Assembly (NCBI GenBank): GCA_030390025.1
Contig: CM059431.1
Coordinates: 145,640,001 to 145,704,000, forward strand
Source of the DNA: Squalus acanthias
Taxonomy: Eukaryota
DNA length: 64,000 nt
Direction: 5' to 3'
Shown here: positions 15,838-64,000 of the stretch, in pieces
Layout: the number at the start of each line of letters is the position of its first letter
Numbering within the stretch: position 1 is the first letter of the stretch
Notes under the pieces: model-generated
Database searches by the model: none
What the model was told of the DNA's origin: nothing
Seen by the model: only the letters and a program-made list of their open reading frames with translations
Translations under genes and position numbers: made by a program

Positions 15838-17304
15838 ATGGGGCGGCCAACTATTCTGCTGATAAAAGATATTTACTTCAAGATTCTCGCAGCTGTCGGT
15901 GTCCCCGGTGAGCCATTCTAACCTGTTTATTGTTAATCGGCGTTAACTGTGTCCTTCATCTTAATAGCTGTTGGTTAAGGTAACGCGTTCTCCGATGTCA
16001 GCATTACACAGTCAGCAGTGACTGGGCCTACTAGTGAACCGCGGGTCCACACTTCCGTGTTCCCCTTAATATGAACACGTTAATGATGTTACAAAGTTCT
16101 TTGAAGCTCCAATACAAGGATTTTAGCGGATTTCCGGACCGTCTTGTCCCCCCGTGCAGAGTGAGCGCTGCAGCAGCTCATTAAAATGTGTGGGTGGGTT
16201 TCCCAGGTAATGGCTCCAATACCAATCCTGTTCTCACACTGCTCCGTGTGGATAATCACACTGAATGGAGTAAAATGCTCTCAACAGGTATCTCCATATA
16301 TATTTCAATCAGACACTGGAACATTATTTCTCTCCTCTCTCTTTCTTACAGCGAATTTGGTGACAATGGTGATTCTCTCCCGAGGAAACTGCAGCCTTTC
16401 CAAGTGTATCTCTGTCTACATGGTGGCCATGGCAACAGCAGATCTACTGGTCATGGTCTTCAATGTAATGGTGTATTTTATTTTCAGTCGTCGCTTTCCA
16501 CTTTCATTCCTGTCCCACACTCCCGTGTGTAAGTTCATTCTATACATCACTGCTGTCAACCTCGATTTGTCTGTTTGGTTCACCGTCTCCTTCACATTTG
16601 ATCGATTTGTAGTTATCTGCTGCCAGAACATTAAAGTTAAGTATTGCACCGCGAGAACTGCGGTCGCGGTAGTAACAACGTTCTCTGTTCTGATCTTGTT
16701 AAAGAACATTACCTTTATGTTTGCATATGAACGTCAGCAAATAATTAACAATGTGCAGTGGGGCTGCGGGCCAAGTGTAGCTTTCTTTTCCTCACCTCCA
16801 GGTGCAGCGTACTGCTGGTTTCACATCGCCTGGGTAGTTTGGCTTCCTTTTACTTTAATCGCCTTTTTTAATTATTTGACAATCAGACGCATTTTAGTGG
16901 CCAGCAGAGCCCGCAGGGGACTCCGGGCTCACCGGAGTGAGAATCAGAGCGATCCAGAGATGGAGAACCGAAGGAAATCCATCATTTTACTCTTCACTAT
17001 ATCGGGCAGTTTTATACTGTTGTGGTTGACATTTTTCGTTAGTTTTGCAACTACCGGACTGACAAACCCCAATTATTACCGAGGTGACCGCACAAACTCA
17101 GCCTATATCGCCACTGAAACCGGAGCCATGCTGAAGCTTTTGAGTTCCTGTATAAACCCGTGTATTTATGCAGCGACCCAGAGAAAATTCAGAGAAGAGC
17201 TGAAGAAGGTGCTGAAATCTCCCTGGACACTGATTATAAGATTGGTTAAAAATAAAAGAAATACGAACTGGAGCTCCCTTTGGAACATCAGAATTCACGT
17301 TTAG
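15838..17304 (+). CDS. Intact two-exon GPR139/GPR142-like class A orphan GPCR (exon 1 15838-15907, exon 2 16352-17304; 340 aa)
   Basis: Exon 1 MGRPTILLIKDIYFKILAAVGVP/G ends at G|GTGAG. A phase-1 intron ends at TTTCTTACAG|. Exon 2 has ANLVTMVILSR, MATADL (TM2), FTFDRFVVIC (DRY-equivalent), CINPCIY (NPxxY) and FREEL (helix 8); seven hydrophobic segments, no disablement. Confidence 0.9.
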
Positions 17305-36554: not shown

Positions 36555-37660
36555 ACAGCAGTAATGTTGGAGAGGAGTTACCACCCATTAACTTAGAGTA
36601 TTACCAGCAGTAACTTTTGGGAACAGTCACTACCAGCAATATTAGAGACGGATCACCACGAATAATGTTAGATTAGGGTCACCTACAGTAATATTAGAGC
36701 TATGTGAGCACCAGTAATATGGTCGTAGAGCCACCAGAAGTAATGTAACAGTAGGACCAAAGCCATTAATGTTAGAGTAGGGTCACCCCCAGTCATGTAA
36801 AAGTAGGGTCACCACCAGTAATGTTTGAGTAGTGTCACCCCCAGTCATGTTAGTGTCCAGGCAAGAGCAGTAATGTTAGAGCAGGGTCATCACCAGTTTG
36901 TTAGAATAGGTGCAACACCAGTAATGTTAGAGCAGGTTCACCACCAGTAATGTAAGAGTAGAGTGAACACCAATAAGGTTAGAGTAGAATCACCACCAGT
37001 AAAGCTAGCGTGGAGCCACCACCAGTAATGTTAGAGTAGAGTTACAACCAGTAATGTTAGAGTAGGGTCACCACCAGTAATGTTAGAATAGGGTCACCAC
37101 CAGTAACGCTAGAGTAGGGTCACCACCAGTTATGTTAGAGTAGGGTCACCACCAATAATGTTAGATTAGGGTTACCACCAGTAAGGTTAGAGTAGTGTCA
37201 CCATCAGTGTTGTCAGAGTAGAGTAACCACCAGTAATGTTAGAGTAGAGTCACCACCAGTAATGGTAGAGTAGAATCACCACCAGTAATGTTAGTGTAGG
37301 GTCACCATCAATAATGTTAGAGTAGGGTTACCACCAGTAATGTTAGAGTCGGGTCAGCACCAGTGTAGTTAGAGTAGAGTCACCACCAGTAATGTTAGTG
37401 TAGGGTCACCACCAATAATATTAGAATAGGATCAGCACCAGTAATGTTAGAGCAGAATCACCAGCAGTATAGTTGGAGTAGCGTCACCACCAGTAATGTT
37501 TGAGTAGAGTCACCACCAGTGATGTTAGAGTAGGGTCACCGCCAGTAATGTTAGAGTAGGGTCACCACCAGTAATGGTAGAGTAGGGTCACCACCAGTAA
37601 TGTTAGAGTAGCGTCACCACCAGTAATGTTAGAGTAGGGTCACCACCAGTAATGTTAGAG
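36555..37660. repeat. 26-bp minisatellite (AGTAGGGTCACCACCAGTAATGTTAG)n, roughly 40 units
   Basis: Period 26 (e.g. 37581 and 37607). Degenerate at the left end, nearly homogeneous at the right end. Confidence 0.95.
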
Positions 37661-38092: not shown

Positions 38093-39798
38093 ATGGTACG
38101 GCCAATAATTTTACAGATACGGGACATTTACTACCATATCCTCGCAGCATTTGGCATTCCCGGTAAGTCAATGTATCCTGTTGCCTAATACCTGCTGACT
38201 ATCTCAGTGTTAATGTAAGAGATTCCGAGAATGTCCATATTGCAGAGTCATTTATTCACCGGGATCTGTCGGTGAATATTAGCGGCAATCCTAGTCGTCC
38301 GCGCGACCGCTGAGGCACTGTTCTGGTCGCTACATCCCGGGCACCGGACGCTCAAAGTTCCTCCCTATACTGAGGGAGGGCGAGGCTGATTCCCCGGCCC
38401 CTCCAACAACACATAGCTCACTGAAGAATGTGCTGCTCAGTGCCCATAGCAATCACCTCATTTGTGCCGTAGTTCCCTTTCTACATTAAGTGACTCGGAC
38501 TGCAGAAATCTCCAACCAACAGGGGATTGTGAAAGGTATTTTACGAAATAATTTTCACTCAGGAAGGTGCTCCCCTCCTCTCGGCAGCTTTTGAGTATAA
38601 TTTGAAAGTTTTTTTTTGTCGGAGTTGAATGTTTTATTTGAATTATATCTTTCCTTTAATTGCTGTGGAATTATATTTAATACTTGATTGAAGTTTGCTG
38701 GACGGACGGCGGATTTTCAGTTCCTCGATATTGAATGTTCAGTGATTTCATTCCTTTAAATAAAGTGTCTTCACCATCGCCTAAATTAATGAAAAAACCC
38801 GTCCGCATAACGCTGACTAGGACCACATCTGATCATTTCCCCACAATAATCTGTGAGATTTATCTCAATGAACCAATTACTGACCTCTTCTCCCTCATTC
38901 TCACAGCGAACCTACTGACAATCGTGATTCTCTCCAGAGGAAACTGCGGCCTTTCCATGTGTATCTCAGTCTACATGGTGGCCATGGCAACAGCAGATCT
39001 ACTGGTCATGACCATCAATATATTAGTGAACCGCATTTTACGTTATCACTTTCCACATTCATTTCTGTCGTTAACTGCCGTTTGTAAGATCATTATATAC
39101 CTGCAATGTGTCGCCCTGTATTTGTCGGTGTGGTTTACAGTCTCGTTCATATTAGACCGATTTGTAGCTATATGTTGTCAGAAGTTTAAAACAAAGTATT
39201 GCACAGTGAGACCTGCGGCCGCGGTTATAACAACGGTCTCTGTCCTGATCTGTTTACAGAGCCTCGTGTTTTGGTTTGCATTTGAACCTGAGCAAATCAT
39301 TAACAATGTTCACTGGGGTTGCCGCTCCAGAGTGGAGTTTTCTTCATCGCCTGTAGGAGTGGCGTTTCCCTGTTACGTAGCATTTGTTTTTCTTGGCTTA
39401 GTTTCGCTTTGATATTACTGTTTAATTGTTTGACAGCCAGACGTATTTTAGTGGCCAGTCGAACCCGCAGGGGACTCCGGGGTCACAGCAGTGAGAATCA
39501 GAGCGATCCAGAGATGGAGAGCCGAAGAAAATCCATCATTTTACTGTTCACTCTATCGGCCAGTATCATACTATTGTGGCTGACAACTATGGTTACTAAT
39601 TTAACTACCAGACTGACAAGCACCGTGCATTACCGAGGCGATTATGCGGCCCCTGCCTATATTGCCACTGAAACCGGATATATGCTCATGTATTTGAGTT
39701 CCTGTACAAACACGTGTATTTATGCAGCTACTCAAACTAAATTCAGGGAAGAGCTGAAGCAGGCGATGAAAACACCTTGGACATTTATTTGCAAATAA
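38093..39798 (+). pseudogene. Two-exon GPR139/GPR142-like GPCR with a single frameshift (exon 1 38093-38162, exon 2 38907-39798)
   Basis: Exon 1 MVRPIILQIRDIYYHILAAFGIP/G|GTAAGT; acceptor TTCTCACAG|. Exon 2 has ANLLTIVILSRGNCGLS, MATADL, ILDRFVAICC, CTNTCIY and FREEL. Apparent 1-bp deletion near 39372 (CCC TG- TTA CGT). Confidence 0.85.
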
Positions 39799-42959: not shown

Positions 42960-44930
42960 CATTTGTTGTGTTCTCCTGGCATTCCTGTGCCCTCTATTTG
43001 TTATTAAACGGTTAATATCTTTCCATGACCCTACTTCTAAATAAATGGTTTATGTTCCCCCTGGTCCCAATTTATAATTAAACAGTTACAGCATTCCCCA
43101 TAATTCCCCTGTCCTCTCTTTCGAATTAAAAAGTTAACATCTTCCCATTACTTCCCCTGTCCTCTATTTCTAATTAAACAGTTACTGTGTACCCCTAAAT
43201 TACCCTCTCCTCTATTTCTAATTAAACAGTTACTGTGTTCCCCTAAATTACCGTGTCCTCTATCTCTAATTTCACAGTTACTTTGTACCCCTAAATTACC
43301 CTGTCCACTATTTCTAATTAAACAGTTACTGTGTTCCCCTAAATTACCATGACCACTATTTCTAATTAAAAAGTTACTGTGTTCACCTAAATTACCCTGT
43401 CCTCTATCTCTAATTACACAGTTACTGTGTTCCCCTAAATGAACCTGAACTCTATCACTAATTACACAGTTACTGTGTTCCCCTAAATTACCCTGTCCTC
43501 TATCTCTAATTACACAGGTACTGTGTTCCCCTAAATTACCCTGTCCTCTATCTCTAATTACACAGTTATTGTGTTCCCCTAAATTACCCTGCCCACTATT
43601 TCCAATTAAACAGTTACTGTGTTCAGCTAAATTACCCTGTCCTTTATCTCTAATTACAGTTACTGTGTTCACCTAAATGACCCGGTACTCTATCTCTAAT
43701 TACACAGTTACTGTGTTCCCCTGAATTATCCTGTCCTCTGTCTCTAATTAAACTGTTACTGTGTTCCCCTAAATTATCCTGCCCTCTATCTCTAATTACA
43801 CAGATACTGTGATCCCCTAAATTACCCTGTCCTCTATCTCTAATTACAGAGCTACTGTGTTCATCTAAATTACCCTGTCCTCTATCTCTAATTACACAGT
43901 TACTGTGTTCCCCTAAATTAGCCTGCCCTCTATCTCTAATTACACATTTACTGTGATCCCCTAAATTACCCTGTCCTCTCTCTCTAATTACAGAGTTACT
44001 GTGTTTCCCTAAATTACCCTGTCCTCTATCTCTAATTACACAGTTTCTGCGTTCCCCTAAATTACCCTGTCCTCTATCTCTAATTACACAGTTATTGTGT
44101 TCCTCTAAATTACCCTGTCCTCTATCTCTAATTAAACTGTTACTGTGTTCCCCTAAATTACCTTGTCCTCTATCTCTAATTAAACAGTTATTGTGTTCCC
44201 CTAATTTACCCTGTCCATTATATCTAATTAAACTGTTACTGTGTTCCCCTAAATTACCCTGTCCACTATTTCTAAGTAAACAGTTACTGTGTTCCCCTAA
44301 TTTACCCTGTCCATTATCTCTAATTAAACTGTTACTGTGTTCCCCTAAATTACCCTGTCCTCTATCTCTAATTACACAGTTACTGTGTTGACCTAAATTA
44401 CCCTCGCCTTCATCTCTAATTACACAGTTACTTTGTTTACCTAAATTACCCTGCCCTCTACCTCTAATTAAACTGTTACTGTGTTCCCCTAAATTACCCT
44501 GTCCTATATCTCTAATTACACAGTTGCTGTGTTCCACTAAATTACCCTGTCCTCTATACCTAATTACACAGTTACTGTGTTCCCCTAAATTACCCTCTCT
44601 TCTATCTCTAATTGCGCAGTTACTGTGTTCCCCTAAATTACCCTGCCCTCTATCTCTAATTACACAGTTACTGTGTTCCCCTAAATTACCCTGTCCTCTA
44701 TCTCTAATTACACAGTTACTGTGTTCACCTAAATGTTTCCTGTCCTCTATCTCTAATTACACTGTAACTTTGTTCGTATAGTTCCCGTTATTCTCCTGAT
44801 AAGTAAGCAATTGTTATATTCACCTAAGGTCTCCTTTATTCTATTTTTAAATAAAGAGTTGCTGCCTTCCCCTCAATTTACCTGTCCTGTAATTTAATTA
44901 AACACTTACTGTATTCCCGTGAATTCCCCT
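42960..44930. repeat. 48-bp minisatellite (TTACACAGTTACTGTGTTCCCCTAAATTACCCTGTCCTCTATCTCTAA)n; core ~43090-44760, about 35 units
   Basis: Clear 48-bp period; the minus strand translates as (GQGNLGEHSNCVIRDR)n; flanks are degenerate. Confidence 0.95.
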
Positions 44931-54678: not shown

Positions 54679-55772
54679 TGTAAGGGGTATCTTAAGTGAG
54701 CGGTTCGAATCGAACAACACCCCTCCGGTTCCTAGACTTTGGGCTTATTTAGGGGTTGTGAACAAAATTGCAGTAAACAGGTTCTGAACAAAGAAATTTA
54801 CTTTCTTAAAAGAAAAAGGTAACAAACTTGAAAACACACGTATTACTTAAACACAGATTCGGGGAACACACGGTACAAGCGAGGGAAACGACAATAAATC
54901 AAACAAAACCCTATCCCTCCCAAATATCCCACTATCTGGCTAGGTTTTTGGTTTCAGGAGATCAGGGATAATGCTCACCAACGAGTCCTTGACAGGATAT
55001 TAGAGTCTTTTTGTTTAAAAGGACTCCGGAAGGCCCTTATGGTTTCTTCTTGCGTGCTGGTTTTCTTCCTCGTGGGTTGTGGTAAGTTTTGCTGGAGCAG
55101 GGAGAGAGCTGTGTTCGCGTCGCCAGTCAGTCCAAAGAGAGAGAGATTATGGCACAGGCTTTCAAATTATACTGTATCTTTTTTCGCGCTCAAAACCCCT
55201 TAATAAAACGAATTCCTTTTAGAATGTAAATGACCCTCTGTCTCGTTTTTGGCGGGCTGGCCAGCTCCGATGGTTCTTGCTTAGTGTTAATCGCTTTCCG
55301 ATTTAAACACCGCCTTATCTACACGCCAAATCTTCACTCTATTGTCCTTCTGTTTGGCAGGCTTTTAAATCGGTTCTCTGATTACCTGATTGATTGTTTT
55401 TTTTGGATGGGATAATGGCTATGAAACTGTGTGATCGAAATTAAATTGTCATTGAATCGTTTTTAGATTTCCAGCATCTTTAAGCCCCTGGGGATCCATA
55501 TTTGAATGTGTTTGTGAGTTTTTTTTTTGGTTTTGTCGAGAGATTACTGCACTGCCTGGCCACGCTCCTCTGCAGCCTGTGTGTTTGTGAAGGCGTCTTT
55601 CCCCAGTAAGATTCGAAAAGTCAGTTTTCTCAAGGTTTTCTTCTTGTGGTCTTAGGTTTTTACATCAAATCACTTCACTGAGGTCCCATCATCCCAAGTT
55701 TGTATGAAAAGTCCAAAAATCACTCCCTTTAGGGCTCTGTTCGAGTTTCTGGGGGATTTTGCGAAGCCTACA
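54679..55772 (-). repeat. 3' LTR of the ERV (~1094 bp)
   Basis: Termini TGTAAG...CCTACA (TG..CA, imperfect inverted repeat). The left edge is exactly where homology with the paralog (48360) stops, and the right edge abuts the PPT. Confidence 0.8.
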
Positions 55773-55787
55773 TACCCCACTTTGAAA
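55773..55787 (-). other. Polypurine tract (PPT)
   Basis: The minus strand reads TTTCAAAGTGGGGTA|TGTAGG immediately before the LTR. Confidence 0.65.
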
Positions 55788-56058
55788 CTAACACTGACTT
55801 AGTATCATTAACAGGTGAGCAAAATTTCCGATCCCCGAAAACCAACCTTCCCCTGTATTACCTAAACTAAAAACCCAAACATTAATTCCCCTTTTGAAAG
55901 TGGTGTTTCAGGTACATACAGGTAAGAATCAATCTTTATTTCACATCCAAGCACAGAGAGAGTACAACTCCCCTGCACAGCTTGGAAAAAAACACATCAT
56001 ACACATCGTAAAAATGACACAACACACATACAATTTTTTTTTAATTAAAAGACGAAAT

Positions 56059-58336
56059 TCAAGTTTCGTTCCATCCCTGGCCACAGCCTTTCTTTTGATG
56101 CACTTCCCAAGTCCCTTCGTGTCTGGAGCGGAGCTCCCCGTCCCTTCCCCTGCACTTTGTACACAGCAGGTAGAGAACTATCCCGAGCTGGCAGACCACC
56201 AAAAGATGGGAAGCCATCCTGATCCAGGACGGCACCTCTATATTCTCGAAAATATCTAACCAGGGTGGAACTACTATATTCAAAATCTCTGCCCCTATTT
56301 CAACTGTTTTCTGTTCTAGGGTGTAGAAATATTTTTGTGAAATCTCTACAGCTTTAAGTAGGATGGTAAGATGTTCGGGTAGAGTGGGAATTTTATATCC
56401 AAAGTAAGTCACATACTTTTGCAGGTTGGTGATGTTTTCTGTTACAGTGACGTGAACAGTGGGGGGTTCAGGATGGGGGACAATCCGTTCCTGGGCCACT
56501 TGAACTTCTGCCTCGGGTTTAAAGCATAAACTGCTGTCGCTTACCGGACACCAGAAGTGTCCATGCTGGTAGTGAGTCGCACCTGTGGTGACACAATATG
56601 TCCCACCGCCTATATATGCTACCTTTGGGGAAACATGGCCGTGTGCCATCACCTCCATGGTACAATTGATAGGTCGTGCTCCAGCAACTTTAAACCCGCA
56701 CTGTGGTTTGGAATAGGCGTTCAAGTGCTGGGGACACAGTATTATGTGTGAACCCCGGCTCCGGCACCCGGAGAGGTCAGTACCTGTCATGGCGTGCTCC
56801 CACTTTATGACATAAGGTGGGACCGCTGTAAAACGGATGTGTGCACCCACTTGAATGACTCCAATGTTCTCCACCCTGTATACCGTTACGGGTCGGGCTG
56901 TCCCACTCATGACCGGCATTCTCACTACTATTCCCATGATAGTGTGATTTGAACGCCCACAATATATTGGGACAGGGTAGGCTTCAGAGGCTAGTCGAAA
57001 TTGGCATGGGCTCAGAGAATTACTAAACGGGTGGAGGGCTGCAAGGTGCTTGTTGCTGATACAGGAGGGGACTAAACCTTGCTTTAAATCCTCCAGGTTG
57101 CTACGGCCCTCGACAGCAACCATGCCCCGTACAGCACACACACCTCATTCTGTGCAGCCTGATCCGATGCATTCCTATCCTCCCGTATGAGTGCATTTAC
57201 TGTTTTGACATGCCTTTACTATTCTGCAATAATTTCCTTTAAATGAACCGTCATAGCTTGCTCCTCATGTAGCTCTGAGCCTACCACTGTGTTCCCATCC
57301 TTCAGGATCTTTCCTAACTGGGTTTTTAACCATTTATCTGTGTCTGTAATTCCATGTCATCCCGTGCCCATAGGGTTATCAGGGTGTATTCTGTATAGCT
57401 CTACTTTGCCTATATTGGCAAAATCAAATTCGTAAAATTTCCGAAACAGTTCCTTTAGCAGGGCCTGGTACAGCTGCTCCGTCTCCTTAGGACACCACTC
57501 AGGTAAGTATACCTCGGTAAGGTTTAATATTACTGAAGCTACTGCATAGTGTACCCCCTGGTATAGTACCTTTTCGTTTGGTACTAGGACTAACCCATTC
57601 CCTGGTCCCTTGGTGGTGGTAGGGCACTTTTCTTCCAGGGTTTTCGGTACCTGGGTCGTGGGTAGGGGCTTTCGGGTGTGTGCCACGAGTTCAGTGGCAT
57701 TAACTGGGACCGGAATGTATGGGACCACGCACCCATGCAGGCTAGAATCCCACCCTATCCCCTCCCCGGCATCTTTCCATTTGCTGGAGATGATGACGGA
57801 TACCCCTGTGGGGCAGGCTTCCTCTGATCCCCACATACAAACATAGACTCCCTGTTCTGAAACCCACCACTTATCCCAACAAACACTAACTCCTCCTTGT
57901 GTCCCTGTGATTGTCCGGTGGGTGTCGTTCCCTAATCGTTCCCAGTGGGCTGAATGGTCCCCTGCGTCCCTGCTCAGCTTCCTGAGCCACCACCACCTAT
58001 TCAAGGGAATTCGTCCCTTACAGGTAAGGCACACACGCTTCCCCTCGGTGACACTGACCCTTGTGGCAACGACCTGTATTCTGGGGCATGGCGGGGAGGC
58101 CTCCCCGTACGCGAACCCGGGCTGGTTGGAGTATTTAGTAGAGTTAGACACCAGCCACCCTGGCCACCTTCCCTCGTGGAAGTAGATGGCGAGCTCCTCC
58201 ACTCCCCGCTCGCCACCCCCTGTGGTGACGACTGGTGCTCTCACTCCTGAGCACCCATAGATGTCGGAGTCCTCCACGTCACCTCGGTCACCGATGCTCA
58301 CCCTACCAGGGCGAGCAGGACCAGAAACCTTGTCAT
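56059..58336 (-). pseudogene. env: ERV env: signal peptide + Ig-like domain + paramyxovirus-F-like class I fusion ectodomain + TM; disabled
   Basis: ATG 58336 gives MTRFLVLLALVG*AS (signal-peptide-like). Ig motif VTEGKRVCLTC..WWWLRK..EQGVYVC. F2-like GLVLVP..VILNL..CP...Y..LL. F1-like RMPV..VYRVENIG..VPPYV..DLSGC..LCP..CG..NC. TM ASHLLVVCQLGIVLYLLC. Several in-frame stops and about 3 frameshifts. Confidence 0.8.
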
Positions 58337-58349
58337 CCCGAAGTCCTTT

Positions 58350-58372
58350 CTGTAGGGGCACACACAAAACAT
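58350..58372 (-). promoter_or_regulatory. Candidate env splice acceptor
   Basis: The minus strand reads GTTTTGTGTGTGCCCCTACAG|AAAGGACTTCGGG ATG, an AG 13 nt before the env ATG, as expected for a subgenomic env mRNA. Confidence 0.5.
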
Positions 58373-58453
58373 ATATCCATGTCCCAAAAAGGTTCTCTGG
58401 CTGGATAATTAATCAAACCCTTAAACTTAAAAAAAACTCTACAAACAACTAAA

Positions 58454-61400
58454 CTAGCGATAACCATAACTACCAAAACTGCAATTACTTAAAACCGAAA
58501 AATTCTGTACATTTGCCGCCCGTCTCCTGTTTAGTCTCTGCCTTATGTGGCCTCTGGATGGCTTGTACACCTGGGTATAGTGCGGCCTGTTCCGCCGGAC
58601 CCAGAAGGCCTTCCTCAAAACCGCTGGGGGTAACTTAACATCCCAGCTGCGTCCTGTACTGCAGCACACTACCCCCTTTTGTGTGACTGCAGCGCCCTCG
58701 TTCATATCTGTGGGCTCCTCCCAGCCTGAGGCTGCGGGCGGGGGACCCTTCTCTCTCTCTTCTTCCAGTACTACCTCTCCTGTGAAACCCTCACTCTTGG
58801 AGGCTGCAGGCTGGGAATCCCCAACTTTAGAACGCTCCCTGCTCTTGGGCGCTCTTTTTCGGGTTGCAACCCTCTTTGGGTGGGACCTTTAAACAGATAC
58901 ACCTGTGGAGACTGAAGCCTTTGCTGTGGTGTGCGGGGAGACCTTCTTAGGGCTCTGGCCACTGGGGGTGTGCTTGAGTCCCACATAATCGGTGGAGTGA
59001 CCTCTCCTGTGAGACAACACACTGTCCCTCCCGCTGCAGCTTGTGCGTCTGCCACAGCTGCGGCTGGCTGAGGATTTCTAACTTGGGGGCCATCCAGCTT
59101 TGCCGGCTGTTCCCTTTTAGGTTTAAACAGTTTGCATTGTTTGATGTGAAACCACGTTGTACGGCGGGGCATCTTTATGGCATAGACCATGGGGCTTGCC
59201 TTGTCTACAATGTTGTAGGGCCCCATGTACAATGGTTCGAAACTCCCTACCCGAGCAAAATTTCTAACCATGACCTGATCTCCAACCTCCCACTCGTGGT
59301 GCTTGCGGGGTTCCAGCAGCAATCGGTTACCCCAATGCTGTTTTCCCATGTTACTCGCAGCCTGCCAGTGGACCTTTTTAAGGTGGTCCAACAGATTCCT
59401 GACGAATATGTCCCGGTTCACCTCCCTGAGCTGCCCTTCCCTGAGCACCGGGGCTAGCACATAGGTGGGGGTCCGCATAATCCTGCCAGTCATGAGCTGG
59501 TGTGGGGAATACCCCGTGCTTTTTGACTGGCTGGCCCGGATCCCCATTAGGACCAACAGTGAGGCGTCTACCCACTTTTTGGGTGAGTCTCCCATCTCCT
59601 TTCGCAGCCTTTCTTTGATGGTACGGTTTAAACGCTCCACAATCACTGATGACTGTGGGTTGTGGGCGATGTGCCATTTCCCTTCTATGCCGAGTACCCT
59701 GAGGATCTCTTGCATGACCTGCACAGTAAAGTGACTCCCCTGGTCTGACTCCACATACTGTAGGAGCCCCCATCGTGACAACACTTCCCTGACCAGGATC
59801 CTGGCTGTACCCAAAGCGGTAGCTGTTCGACATGGAAAAGCTTCCACCCACTTTGAGAACACATCCACCAGGACTAGGCAGTATTTGTAGCCACCCTGAG
59901 CGGTGGGTAGGTGCCCGATGTAGTCGACCTGGATCGACTGCCATGGTCCCTTTACCCTCCTGATGTGTCCCATAGATACCTTCCTTTTCTGTGGGTCAGT
60001 GTTGTTAGCAGCACACACCAGACAGCCTGCACAGAACTCGCGGACATCCTCCCTCAGTCCTGGCCAACATCCTGCCTGTTCCACCCGCTGCCAGGTGGTC
60101 TCAAGCCCGGGATGCCCCGCTCCTGGACCCTCACGGGTCAGTTGGAGGATTTCCCTTCGGTGCTGCTGCGGCACTACCCATTGTTCCCCACTGAACAGCA
60201 TCCCTTCTTTGCGGGTGATGGCTGCTGCGCCGTAAGGGCCCTCTACCTTCTCCCCTCTAGCCAGCGTTTCCAGGACAGTTTTTAGGATGGGATCCCGTGC
60301 CGGGACCGTCTTTAGGTCCGGGGTCAATGCTACCCCTGCACTCCCTTGGGTCCCTCCTCTGCCTCTGATTGATGCTACCGGGTTTGATCCATATGGATCC
60401 AACAACGTGCCTGTACTGGCACCCTCTTTGGCCAGCATGTCGGCTTGGTGATTGCCCTCTGCGCGGGGCTTTACCTTGGAATGGGCCTTCACCTTTTGCA
60501 TGTATACCCTACCTTCCTCCCCTACTGCCCTCATGATTTTCTCCAACAGAGCCTTGATGGCCAGGGATCTCACATCAGCGGAGGCGTATCCACAACGGGA
60601 CCAGATGGCCAGGTACTCTGTACACGAATTGCATGTGAACATGCTGTCCGAGCAAATCGTGTATGGCGTAGGGAATTCCTTGGGGTGTGTGACTACATAC
60701 ACCACCGCAGACAGTTCAGCCTGCTGGGCACTCATGGTGCTGGGGAGCTTGATTGCCAGAGCAATGCCTGCCTCTGGGTCATAAATCCCACACCCTGTGG
60801 GTCGTTTGCCAGCTGATACTGTGCTTGAACCGTCCACGTAGATTTCGCGGCCTGTGGGGTGTATCCCAGCTCGCAAACCTATGTTGACTTCCCATACCCC
60901 TTCAACGGAACTCCGGTGGGCTGTCCCTGAGTAAATCATGTTTGCTACGAGCTTTGGCTCGCAGAGACCTTTTACCCTCAGATCCATTTGTGAGAGAAGC
61001 AGGGTCCAGCGAGCAATGCGAGCACTGCTCACTGTCCCATCTTTAATTCTCCCATCCAAGAGCATCTGGGTGGGCGTGTGGTGAGTGAGGAGTGTGATGG
61101 GAGAGGTGCCTGTGAAGATCAATGATCTTTTCACAGCCCAGTGAGTGGCTAGGAGGTGCCTCTCACAGTTGGAGTAGCTCCTCTCCACATCAGTGAGCAT
61201 TCTGGTGAAGTAAACCACTGGTCTCAGCTTGCCATGCCTGTCTTGGAGCAGCACTGTACTCAGACTGTCCCCACTGGCTGCTACCTCCAGGAAAAACTCT
61301 ACCCCTCCATCAATGGCCCCTAGAGCCATGGCGGTTTGCAGATCTCTCCTGAGTTTCAGAATGGTAGCCTCGCAACCCTCATCCCAAACCTGCTCCACTC

Positions 61401-62785
61401 CCTTGTGTAGGAGTCGGAGCAGAGGGGCTGCTGTGGCTGCGTAATCCTCAATGAAATCTCTGCAGTACCCAGTTAGCCCTAGAAAAGACCTTACCCCTGT
61501 AACTGTGTTGGGGGCTGGTAACTCCTGAACTGCTTCCCTTCTAGCTTTGTCAATGGCCCTCTCCCCTGCTCGCACAGCCAGGCCCAGGAATTTGACTTCC
61601 CGCTGGCCAATCTGTGCCTTCTTTAGGTTTACCGTAAAGCCCTCTTGCCTGAGCAGTTCCAGCAGTTCTGCCAGAAGGAGACCATGTTCCTCTCACTCAT
61701 CGGTAAAGAGGATTAGGCCGTCCACATACTGGACCAGCTGATGGGGCCTGCTGAAGCCCTTCAAGCAATTCACCATACATTGGGGAAACATGCTGGGCTG
61801 TTGTGGGAGCCCTAGGGCAGACAGTTCCATGTGGACGGTTGGCCTTTAAATGTAAAGGCGAACTTGTACTGATCCTTAGAGGGATGGACCAGAAACCGTT
61901 GGAAATATCCAGCACTGTAAAGGTGGTCGCAGATGCCGGGAAACTTCCAATGAGGTCGGCTACGGCTGCAACCGTGCGGGCACAGGCGGGGATGTTTCGG
62001 TTGAGTACTCGATAGTCTACTGTGGCCCTCCAGGATTTATCTGGTTTTCTAACCGGCCACAGTGGGGAGTTCACATGGGTAACTATAGATCTCAATATCC
62101 CCTGCTTGACTAAAGAAGTCAAAGCCGTTTCCAAGTCTGTCTAAGCTTCCCTGGGGAAGTTATACTGCTTTTGTGGGCGGTTCATGGGGTCCCCACTGAC
62201 ACTAACCTCGACCCCGGTTACACTCCCACAGTCGTGCTTGTGAGTGGCAAATGCTGCGAGGTTTTCCGGCACAAATGCCTGGTACTCCCTTGGAGTGTGA
62301 CTGACCATGAGTTCTAGGTCGTAACCATCCTTTGGTTTTACTGTGCACAAGGTCCCCTTGCCTTGTGCCTCCGGGATGACTGCTACCTCACTACTATTTT
62401 GGGTACATGCTCCCCATAGACAGTGGTTCCTTAAATCCACTAAAATCCTGTGGCCTGTGATAAAGTCGGCCCCCAGGATCCCCTTCCCTTCTTGCTCCCA
62501 CTTCATTAGGACACAGGTCCACTTGGTGTGGAGCGTTCACAAATGAATGGACAGCGGGATGGAGAATGAGCCAGCCTGCTCGTTACCTGTGAATCCCACT
62601 AGGCTGCACGGGACCCCGTTATACAGAGGTGAATTGGCTGGGTTATCTGAATAAATGAGGGTGCTCGAAGCTCCTGTGTCTAACAGATAGTTCCCTTCTA
62701 CCTTTTCTACCTCCATCTTAACATGCGGTATCTTCCAGGCATCATACTCGAGGGGACACAGGTAGACCGGCTGTGCTAGCTCCAG
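58454..62785 (-). pseudogene. pol: ERV pro-pol (protease, RT, tether/degenerate RNase H, RNase H, integrase with GPY/F and long C-terminal extension)
   Basis: PR LLDTGASS (DTGA 62669-62680) and ILGADF. RT YVDG (61717-61728; YVDD mutated). FFLEVAASGDSLSTVLLQ (degenerate RH). EIYVDGSS..AQQAEL..ICSDS..KAHS..GNHQAD (RH). GHPG..CLVC, VDYIG, SDQGSHF, ERLNRTIK (IN), YMGPY. 934-aa uninterrupted ORF at 58771-61575; stops and frameshifts in PR/RT. Confidence 0.92.
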
Positions 62786-64000
62786 TCATGCCTCTGGGTT
62801 GAATGGGGCAGATGGGATCAGAGCGCCAGTGGCTGTAGCCACCTTCCCTGGGCCACAAACAGGACTCTGATGGCCACTACTATTATGTCCAGTGTGAGGG
62901 AAGACGTCGGAGCCTCTACTTTTGGGGCAGGAGTTGGGGACTTCTTTGCTAGGCTCTCCTTCCAGGGATTCCTACAGTCCTTTCTCCAGTGCCCAGTCTT
63001 CCCGCACCCGAAGCAGCTACGCTTCGTGTCGGAAGGTTTACCACCTTCCTGGTGCCACTCCTTCTTATCCTGACTGGGCTTTATCTCATGCACCTTCCCT
63101 TTCGGTGGGGTGTCTTCATCTCCCCTAACGTTCCAGTAGGCTAGTGTCAGTTGCCTGACCACTGCCTCCTCGGTGACCCGGGGCTATCTTGGGTCAAACC
63201 AAAGCTCAGCCTTGGCTTTGACTCGTGGCAAGCTGTTTGCCACTACTCTACGGAGCCAGTGGGCCAGCTCGTCCCGGTTCAGGTAAGCCCTGTCGAGAGC
63301 CCCATTACAAGCACCCCTGTACACCGGCCACAGCCTGTCTGCGAAAACCTGTTGGGTCTCCCCTGCGAGCTGCACTGTTTTCTCCACCCGGGAGAAAGGA
63401 CATCCCTCAGTCATTCCCATGGCCTCTAATACTTCCTCCCTGAAGGCAGCATACCCGGTCTGTCCTCCCTTGCTCTCAGTAGAGAGTGACTGGTACAATT
63501 TGCCATCTAATGAGAACAAGAGCAATTTTGCCATATCGGCATCGTCAATCGTTAATGGCTCCTGATTGTTCCACCTCCATGAAGTGGACTGAGGGGTCTT
63601 CCTTTTGGGTAAGTTTACTCAGGTGGCTTACCATAGCCCTAAGCTGTTGTGTACCGTGGGGAGCCAAGAATTGACTTTCAAGGGGTCCCTGACCTCCACC
63701 ACCGGCGTGCGGGCCGAATTTTTGCTGTCGTGCTGGGCACATTGGCCCTGGCTCCGACTTCTCGTGCATCGATTCGCCCCCCTCTCCCTGCTGCCAGAAC
63801 GAGTCAAAACTCGGCGCCACAGGTGCTGGTGTGCACTCCCTGTCAGCCTCACAGATTGACTGCACCTCCTGCTGCCTAACCAAGCTTCTCCTTGGCGCCA
63901 CAGGTGGTGGTCGAACAGTCTCCCCCTGCTCTTCCAGGTCTGACCTGGCCGCACCCGGACTTATCAGGCACAGCATGCCTTTCGTCTTGGACAGAGCAAG
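62786..64000 (-). pseudogene. gag: ERV gag (capsid-like region, CCHC zinc knuckle, C-terminal PSAP); 5' end outside window
   Basis: Zinc knuckle CFGCGKTGHWRKDC (62974-63015); MHR-like QLAGETQQVFADRL; ...LIPSAPFNPEA* ending at TGA 62786-62788. Internal stops and frameshifts. Confidence 0.85.

Follow-up and report, generated by a model that had tools for sequence, protein, structure and literature searches.

Organization of the provirus

We analysed a 64,000-nucleotide stretch of the Squalus acanthias genome (GenBank assembly GCA_030390025.1, contig CM059431.1, positions 145,640,001 to 145,704,000; hereafter the window), at the end of which lies an endogenous retrovirus (ERV). The provirus is on the minus strand and totals 11,066 bp; both long terminal repeats (LTRs) were located, the 5' part continues past the window end, and open reading frames (ORFs) together with Pfam matches gave the order gag-pro-pol-env. 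We consider it likely that this is a decayed member, probably a recombinant, of a shark and skate ERV family of high copy number, a canonical and basal SnRV-like retrovirus (clade Huo, class III) bearing an F-type envelope protein (Env) with an immunoglobulin (Ig)-like head. An earlier reading of the same DNA (the original prediction) had taken it for a lokiretrovirus or a close relative of one. The provirus comprises the following features.

54679..55772, minus strand: 3' LTR, 1094 bp, TG...CA ends (LTR comparison)
55775..55783, minus strand: polypurine tract, 2 bases from the 3' LTR (sequence)
56059..58336, minus strand: env, putative F-type (class Ib-like) fusion glycoprotein gene, broken here (frames, sister copies, Atlas)
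57837..58085, minus strand: probable Ig-like domain within the N-terminal extension of Env, with a Thr/Pro-rich linker after it (Pfam Ig_3, sub-threshold)
57360..57630, minus strand: F2-like part of Env (motif order; weak collinear alignment with SnRV Env)
56059..57355, minus strand: F1-like part of Env, with heptad helix, cysteine-rich beta region, second heptad, transmembrane helix (~56165-56230) and short tail
59131..60174, minus strand: integrase (HHCC zinc finger, core, SH3-like end) inside an open 973-codon frame (PF17921, PF00665, PF24626)
60418..60846, minus strand: catalytic RNase H (PF00075, E 7e-20)
60988..61386, minus strand: tether/connection, a degenerate first RNase H (PF17917, E 1e-17; PF17919, E 1e-15)
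61300..62170, minus strand: reverse transcriptase, two frame breaks and stops (Pfam end of the domain; alignment)
62400..62785, minus strand: protease, DTG motif, in the gag frame (motif; weak Pfam match on relative P0001)
62786..62788, minus strand: TGA stop separating gag from pro in the same frame, with CTG/CTA as the next codon; readthrough probable
62789..64000, minus strand: gag, coiled-coil N-terminus and capsid region, broken; runs on to L013:1606
62971-63018, minus strand: single CCHC zinc knuckle in gag (Pfam)
L013:1588-1605, beyond the window: primer-binding site for tRNA-Arg(TCG)
G000:C7:145704609-145705744 (L013:1609-2744), beyond the window: 5' LTR, 1136 bp, TG...CA ends (LTR pairing)

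The last two features were retrieved beyond position 64000 as the original prediction had proposed, and its description of a nearly full-length provirus with two RNase H domains held up. The ORFs that it listed (934, 360 and 336 aa) are obtained from stop-to-stop frames (973, 361 and 351 codons) when reading begins at a GTG/TTG-type start; these frames exist, but their openness hides decayed gag, reverse transcriptase (RT) and env.

The primer-binding site is matched by the 3' end of a host tRNA; its pattern occurred at 424 places in the genome and its reversed control at 0, and ARAGORN called tRNA-Arg(TCG) at both of the pattern loci examined. Long tandem arrays of tRNA-Arg(TCG) with a spacing of ~1.6 kb lie at G000:C26:38.9-42.2 Mb; one examined unit also contains tRNA-Ser(GCT). 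At L013:1588-1606, the gag frame is open from an ATG overlapping the primer-binding site, which is a candidate start only. The gag-pro TGA was followed by CTG or CTA in 29 of 29 family rows (19 distinct places), 28 of them read in frame. UGA-CUR is a leaky stop context.

Phylogenetic placement of the reverse transcriptase

We built two trees. The first, of RT, had 45 rows selected from the RTs available; the second, of RT plus connection, had 33 rows, left out delta- and lentiviruses and represented the family by P0001 and one sister family. Four lokiretrovirus RTs (carp, eel, coelacanth and one further) were recognised by their likeness to Dataset S3 of PMC7947760; foamy, gamma, epsilon, delta and lenti reference genomes were labelled by RT likeness, and the SnRV reference was a 10,688-nt genome matching the length given in PMC12193657.

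In the 45-row tree, the window RT grouped with the canonical retroviruses (support 100/97) and the lokiretroviruses formed a separate clade (100/99); within the canonical group it lay outside the foamy (100/100) and the gamma/epsilon/delta/lenti (100/99) clades. RT plus connection also gave the canonical placement (100/98), with shark, frog and coelacanth ERVs in one group (88/91). A forced clade with lokiretroviruses was rejected by the approximately unbiased (AU) test on RT (p 0.0325) and on RT plus connection (p 0.006). The RT fell outside Metaviridae in both trees, which, with the dual RNase H, speaks against a Ty3/Gypsy (errantivirus) element.

The RT of P0001 is 50% identical to frog ERVs, 42% to SnRV, 33-38% to lokiretroviruses and 32-34% to the three foamy RTs compared, and lokiretroviruses are 55-68% alike among themselves. 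The RT motif reads PFG in 24 of 24 lokiretrovirus RTs in Dataset S3 (PMC7947760) and LPQG in the shark family, SnRV, foamy and gamma viruses. With a lokiretrovirus RT as query, the best of 150 scored matches in the genome reached 37-43% identity; of 30 loci retrieved, 29 carried the LPQG-type motif and one was unread by the pattern. Shark and lokiretrovirus Pol queries found no match in viral contigs. Lokiretroviruses are defined by RT, and in the part of PMC7947760 consulted none of six cartilaginous fish genomes carried them. Judged by its RT, then, the element is not a lokiretrovirus. The phylogeny that the original prediction had suggested as a check thus went partly against it, placing the RT with canonical retroviruses, next to SnRV.

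SnRV is listed as an unclassified orthoretrovirus (PMC12193657), SnRV-like ERVs are known in the elephant shark (PMC4422223), and clade Huo has been described (PMC6001957, PMC8922424). With SnRV-like, clade Huo and class III elements, the shark family shares the RT motif, the place near the base of canonical retroviruses and the 11-kb provirus; elephant shark CmiERV lineage I (PMC4422223, PMC6001957, PMC12193657) is related by description, its sequences not having been compared directly. ERV Pol proteins of frog, coelacanth and turtle annotated as 'NYNRIN-like' or 'Gypsy integrase-like' (P0039, P0040, P0042, P0131) join the same RT plus connection group. We place the family in an open basal fork with SnRV and the shark, frog, coelacanth and turtle ERVs, being less sure of the order inside the fork.

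Genome features other than RT also favour the SnRV side: the shark family has a single CCHC knuckle, and its gag and pro are separated by an in-frame TGA. SnRV also has a coiled-coil Gag with one CCHC, and its gag and pol are in frame across a stop, which is UAG (PMC13517186; also read in the SnRV genome) rather than the UGA of the shark family; a further difference is that no 3' accessory ORF was seen in the shark family. In a quick tree, the RNase H fell on the SnRV/gamma/epsilon side with weak support (Shimodaira-Hasegawa value 89). The dual RNase H is not diagnostic of lokiretroviruses, because it is common to all retroviruses and Odin.

A putative F-type envelope with a probable Ig-like head

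Natural uninterrupted env frames of sister copies have ~808 codons and encode an Env of 784 residues. From its N-terminus, this protein has a signal peptide and an extension of ~220 residues, then an F2-like part and an RxRR site; next come a weakly hydrophobic fusion peptide, the heptads and a cysteine-rich region, and finally a membrane anchor with a short tail. The RxRR motif, a predicted cleavage site, was present in 15 of 20 env loci. The motif order noted in the original prediction is present in the two env frames of the window. Its statement that env lacks both CxxC and CX6CC was half right: CX6CC was found in 0 of 20 loci, but CxxC occurs twice, once in the Ig-like head and once in the cytoplasmic tail, neither forming a gamma-type surface/transmembrane (SU/TM) pair.

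In the ESM Atlas, the Env core was nearest to clusters carrying the Fusion_gly, Baculo_F and Gypsy env families (0.92-0.93) and shared 201-203 of 256 features with the top clusters; scores of such size arise in 4-10% of shuffled proteins, and the feature count favours a true relation. Pfam gave no TLV_coat match on the window or on relative Envs, hhalign to 11 gamma Envs and to 16 foamy Envs gave E 0.24 in each case, and a shark Env query found nothing in metagenomes. With CX6CC absent as well, Env is not of the gamma type. On protein-language-model features and layout, Env looks F-type (class Ib-like).

The N-terminal extension probably holds an Ig-like domain. Ig-like matches were obtained in the Env heads of relatives (E 0.003-0.6), and the head weakly matched the Ig domain of CRTAM in the PDB (E 0.65). 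Gamma- and alpha-type Envs are known to carry binding domains with an Ig fold (bioRxiv 2024.03.17.585361).

SnRV Env (L042:6131-9535) also has a long N-terminal extension, a furin site and a core scoring as F-type: the core fell in a Fusion_gly cluster of the Atlas (0.94, 214 features, with a low recognition value), its top clusters being those of the shark core, and the N-terminus gave a faint Ig V-set match (E 0.32). It differs in being about 1130 aa long and only weakly alignable to the shark Env. An SnRV Env query found nothing in metagenomes, nor in the shark genome under a stricter first look. Among the other viral Envs, that of a WDSV-like genome (L056:5962-9648) gave a weak, collinear alignment to the shark F-type core (hhalign 31.3, E 0.0076, 186 columns), whereas none was obtained with gamma, delta, lenti, foamy or SSSV-like Envs. 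The Env of exogenous epsilonretroviruses may be F-type too; the consulted part of PMC9967133 describes it only as being without gamma-type hallmarks. No paper calling SnRV or WDSV Env F-type was found in the literature covered, which did not include the original SnRV genome paper, and no retrovirus appeared among the 251 F-like proteins of Viro3D in section 9 and supplement 8, the parts searched.

The shark family, its relatives and its host

The env family is abundant in the genome: 113 matches, scored out of 9,994 candidates, showed 86-100% identity, and 10 of the 113 sit in uninterrupted frames of at least 799 codons. Named close relatives came from Heptranchias (80%) and Scyliorhinus (72%) for Pol and from Pristiophorus, Rhinoraja and Scyliorhinus (61-78% over long matches) for Env. 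Because all of these are sharks or skates, the viral relatives (not host genes) indicate that the host is probably a cartilaginous fish, most likely a shark, in agreement with the original prediction. The best Pol matches outside sharks were ERVs of frog, coelacanth and turtle (39-43% over length); these enter the comparison with Pol only, the F-type Env within this group being recorded from elasmobranchs and SnRV.

Other SnRV-like ERV families of the genome (L123, L127, L130; L129; L124, L128, L132; L126) have RTs 47-71% identical to P0001. Env homologs (E down to 1e-103) lie downstream of pol in 7 of 10 of their loci, some with a similar Ig-like head, so this Env layout is a trait of the lineage.

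Some members (L172-L176, L008, L010) have lost ~3 kb between gag and env through internal deletions; by their gag-pro junction they make up a second subfamily. Two annotated Pristiophorus proteins (P0037, P0038) fuse parts of env to a zinc-finger gene or a Niban 1-like gene, probably by annotation read-in or exonisation.

We propose the following scheme for the family. An LTR-driven genome would be primed by tRNA-Arg, as the primer site indicates, and Gag-Pro-Pol would be made by readthrough of the in-frame UGA. Integration would produce a 4-bp target duplication, as seen in three sister copies. Furin would cleave Env at RxRR, so that the front product holds the Ig-like head, the linker and F2 and the F1 product the fusion peptide, two heptads and the membrane anchor; the protein would refold in the F-type manner. 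The Ig-like head most likely binds the receptor, so that one protein would both attach and fuse, unlike paramyxoviruses with their separate attachment protein. Spread was presumably by reinfection, because many copies keep long env frames.

Decay, probable recombination and duplication of the window copy

In the window copy, gag, RT and env are broken. Stops and disrupted frames occur throughout this set: gag has both, and RT combines two frame breaks with stops and a changed catalytic motif. In env, the signal peptide is interrupted by a stop, frame breaks and further stops follow, and a deletion of ~20 codons near 57355-57362 has taken away the furin site together with the beginning of the fusion peptide. 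The window copy makes no functional protein.

The two LTRs of the window copy differ by 5.9% (Kimura two-parameter distance 0.0586), without a target-site duplication. LTR pairing was attempted for 19 copies, of which 7 gave complete and 12 incomplete pairs. Three of the complete pairs belong to the window integration and its duplicates (0.059-0.063, no target duplication), three to intact sister copies (0.013-0.020, each with a 4-bp target duplication) and one to a copy with a divergence of 0.026 and no target duplication. The two LTRs of the window copy are as far from each other as LTRs of unrelated copies are, and it is most likely a recombinant of two proviruses. The insertion date that the original prediction sought from these LTRs was rejected, because they lack a target duplication and diverge like unrelated copies. 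For the three clean copies, t = d/2u gave ~29-45 million years at 2.2e-10, the shark rate assumed in PMC4422223, or 3-4.5 million years at a mammalian rate, neither rate being calibrated for Squalus acanthias copies.

The provirus and its flanks (window 30624 to beyond 64000) recur 62.4 kb downstream with 99.7% identity, a tandem segmental duplication, and older duplicates (95-96% identical) lie at G000:C7:138-139 Mb and on C3383. Judging by these repeats, the window copy was later multiplied passively by segmental duplication.

Alternative readings

Several results weigh against a basal SnRV-like virus with an F-type Env. The SnRV-like rows did not form one clade in either free tree; forcing them into one was not rejected (p 0.243), but neither was a forced clade with foamy viruses (p 0.312), and ERV-L, ERV-S and fish foamy-like ERVs were sampled in neither tree. 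The integrase scored 168-191 bits against lokiretroviruses and 109 against SnRV, and the tether 67-71 bits against two full-length lokiretroviruses and 36 against SnRV. The F-like Env of the original prediction has the Atlas features and layout on its side, but Pfam Fusion_gly (PF00523) matched neither the window nor sister Envs, a genome-wide Fusion_gly search gave no match (nor did its positive controls), and PDB sequence and profile searches with Env found no F protein. AlphaFold models of an uninterrupted natural Env were unusable (pLDDT 32 from the single sequence, 30 from a 23-row alignment), and the Ig_3 match in the window Env (E 0.008) is below the curated cut-off. Homology between SnRV and shark Env is weak: BLAST aligned them collinearly with 19% identity over 420 residues (E 0.015), a profile score of 1.0 bit was equalled by 4 of 1000 shuffles, a wider profile (33 rows) did not raise SnRV Env above shuffles, and an hhalign score of 26.7 over 273 columns (E 0.016) was higher than all 40 shuffles.

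The integrase and tether scores would fit a recombinant lineage, with an SnRV-like RT and with integrase and env taken from a lokiretrovirus, in which case the F-type Env would be a local swap uninformative about the ancestor. Shuffling of RNase H and integrase domains is documented (PMC7947760), and class III backbones that received a different env have been described (PMC8278194). Yet RT plus tether reject a grouping with lokiretroviruses harder than RT alone. The integrase did group with lokiretroviruses, but weakly (81/78), with frog and coelacanth ERVs as their equals and with CGIN1 itself absent from the tree; moreover, the Atlas assigns an F-type Env to SnRV too, although the SnRV integrase does not resemble that of lokiretroviruses. 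The shark integrase and tether are not SnRV-like, and their leaning to lokiretroviruses could come from slow evolution since a shared ancestor or from domain swapping. We consider the recombinant lineage unlikely and prefer a basal SnRV-like virus.

A basal foamy-like (clade Tu) virus with a simpler form of the foamy F-like Env is very improbable. The forced clade was tolerated and foamy Env is F-like by cryo-EM (PMC11468914), but the RT lay outside the foamy clade (4-5 foamy RTs) in both trees, its identity to foamy RTs was the lowest among the groups compared, and Env gave no profile match to foamy Envs. Foamy viruses are not known to have a CCHC knuckle and make Pol independently of Gag, and the shark family has the knuckle and gag and pol in frame. 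A lokiretrovirus with a loki F-like Env, which would be the first from cartilaginous fish, can draw on the dual RNase H, the F-type Env features in the Atlas, short motifs common to Loki-Xtr Env and the weak integrase group, but is largely refuted by the RT trees and AU tests, the LPQG motif, the genome search with a lokiretrovirus RT, the six negative genomes of PMC7947760 and the one lokiretrovirus Env compared, which has no N-terminal extension, and we give it hardly any credence.

Other features of the window

An intact single-exon gene for a rhodopsin-family G-protein-coupled receptor lies at 16165-17304 (7tm_1, E 7e-22), and a shorter similar frame at 38735-39412. Large expansions of rhodopsin-family receptors are found in cartilaginous fish. 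Tandem arrays of 26-bp and 48-bp units occupy 36626-37660 and 43075-44775 of the window and L013:2746-3850; a 26-bp array adjoins the 5' LTR.

Implications for the origin of the retroviral envelope

The origin of the retroviral envelope is unsettled. The lokiretrovirus (lokiortervirus) papers, in the parts consulted, consider four scenarios and report no detectable similarity between lokiretrovirus and canonical retrovirus Envs (PMC7947760, PMC9040795); the model preferred in PMC9040795 is independent gain of Env in the two groups. Lokiretroviruses resemble the shark family in the dual RNase H, in the integrase and in what looks, on the shark side, like an F-type Env, laid out with a signal peptide, an RxKR-type site, heptads and a transmembrane helix, but differ in the RT clade, in PFG versus LPQG and, for the Env compared, in lacking an Ig-like head. 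Foamy Env and the F proteins of paramyxo- and pneumoviruses (class Ib fusogens) probably have in common with the shark Env an F scaffold that accepts receptor-binding modules (PMC11468914). In foamy Env the binding domain is inserted between the subunits, whereas in the shark Env the module is N-terminal, as in coronavirus spike.

That a canonical, SnRV-like backbone and SnRV itself both carry what looks like an F-type Env argues for a shared ancestor with an Env of this type. We tentatively suggest, at slightly less than even likelihood, that an F-type (class Ib) envelope was ancestral to all retroviruses and that gamma- and beta-type Envs are later replacements. If so, the independent-gain model of PMC9040795 would be contradicted, and the shark family would be a slowly evolving basal canonical retrovirus keeping a loki-like integrase and an F-type Env; together with lokiretroviruses, foamy viruses, SnRV and possibly walleye dermal sarcoma virus, it would surround the root. 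The Ig-like head, which several shark families have and of which SnRV shows a faint signal, would then represent an ancient receptor-binding module that the F scaffold acquired. An F-like env alone is insufficient to name an element a lokiretrovirus, and the absence of lokiretroviruses from cartilaginous fish still stands. SnRV is a cultured virus that needs Env for its spread, so the question of the ancestor could be addressed by structure on an existing laboratory virus.

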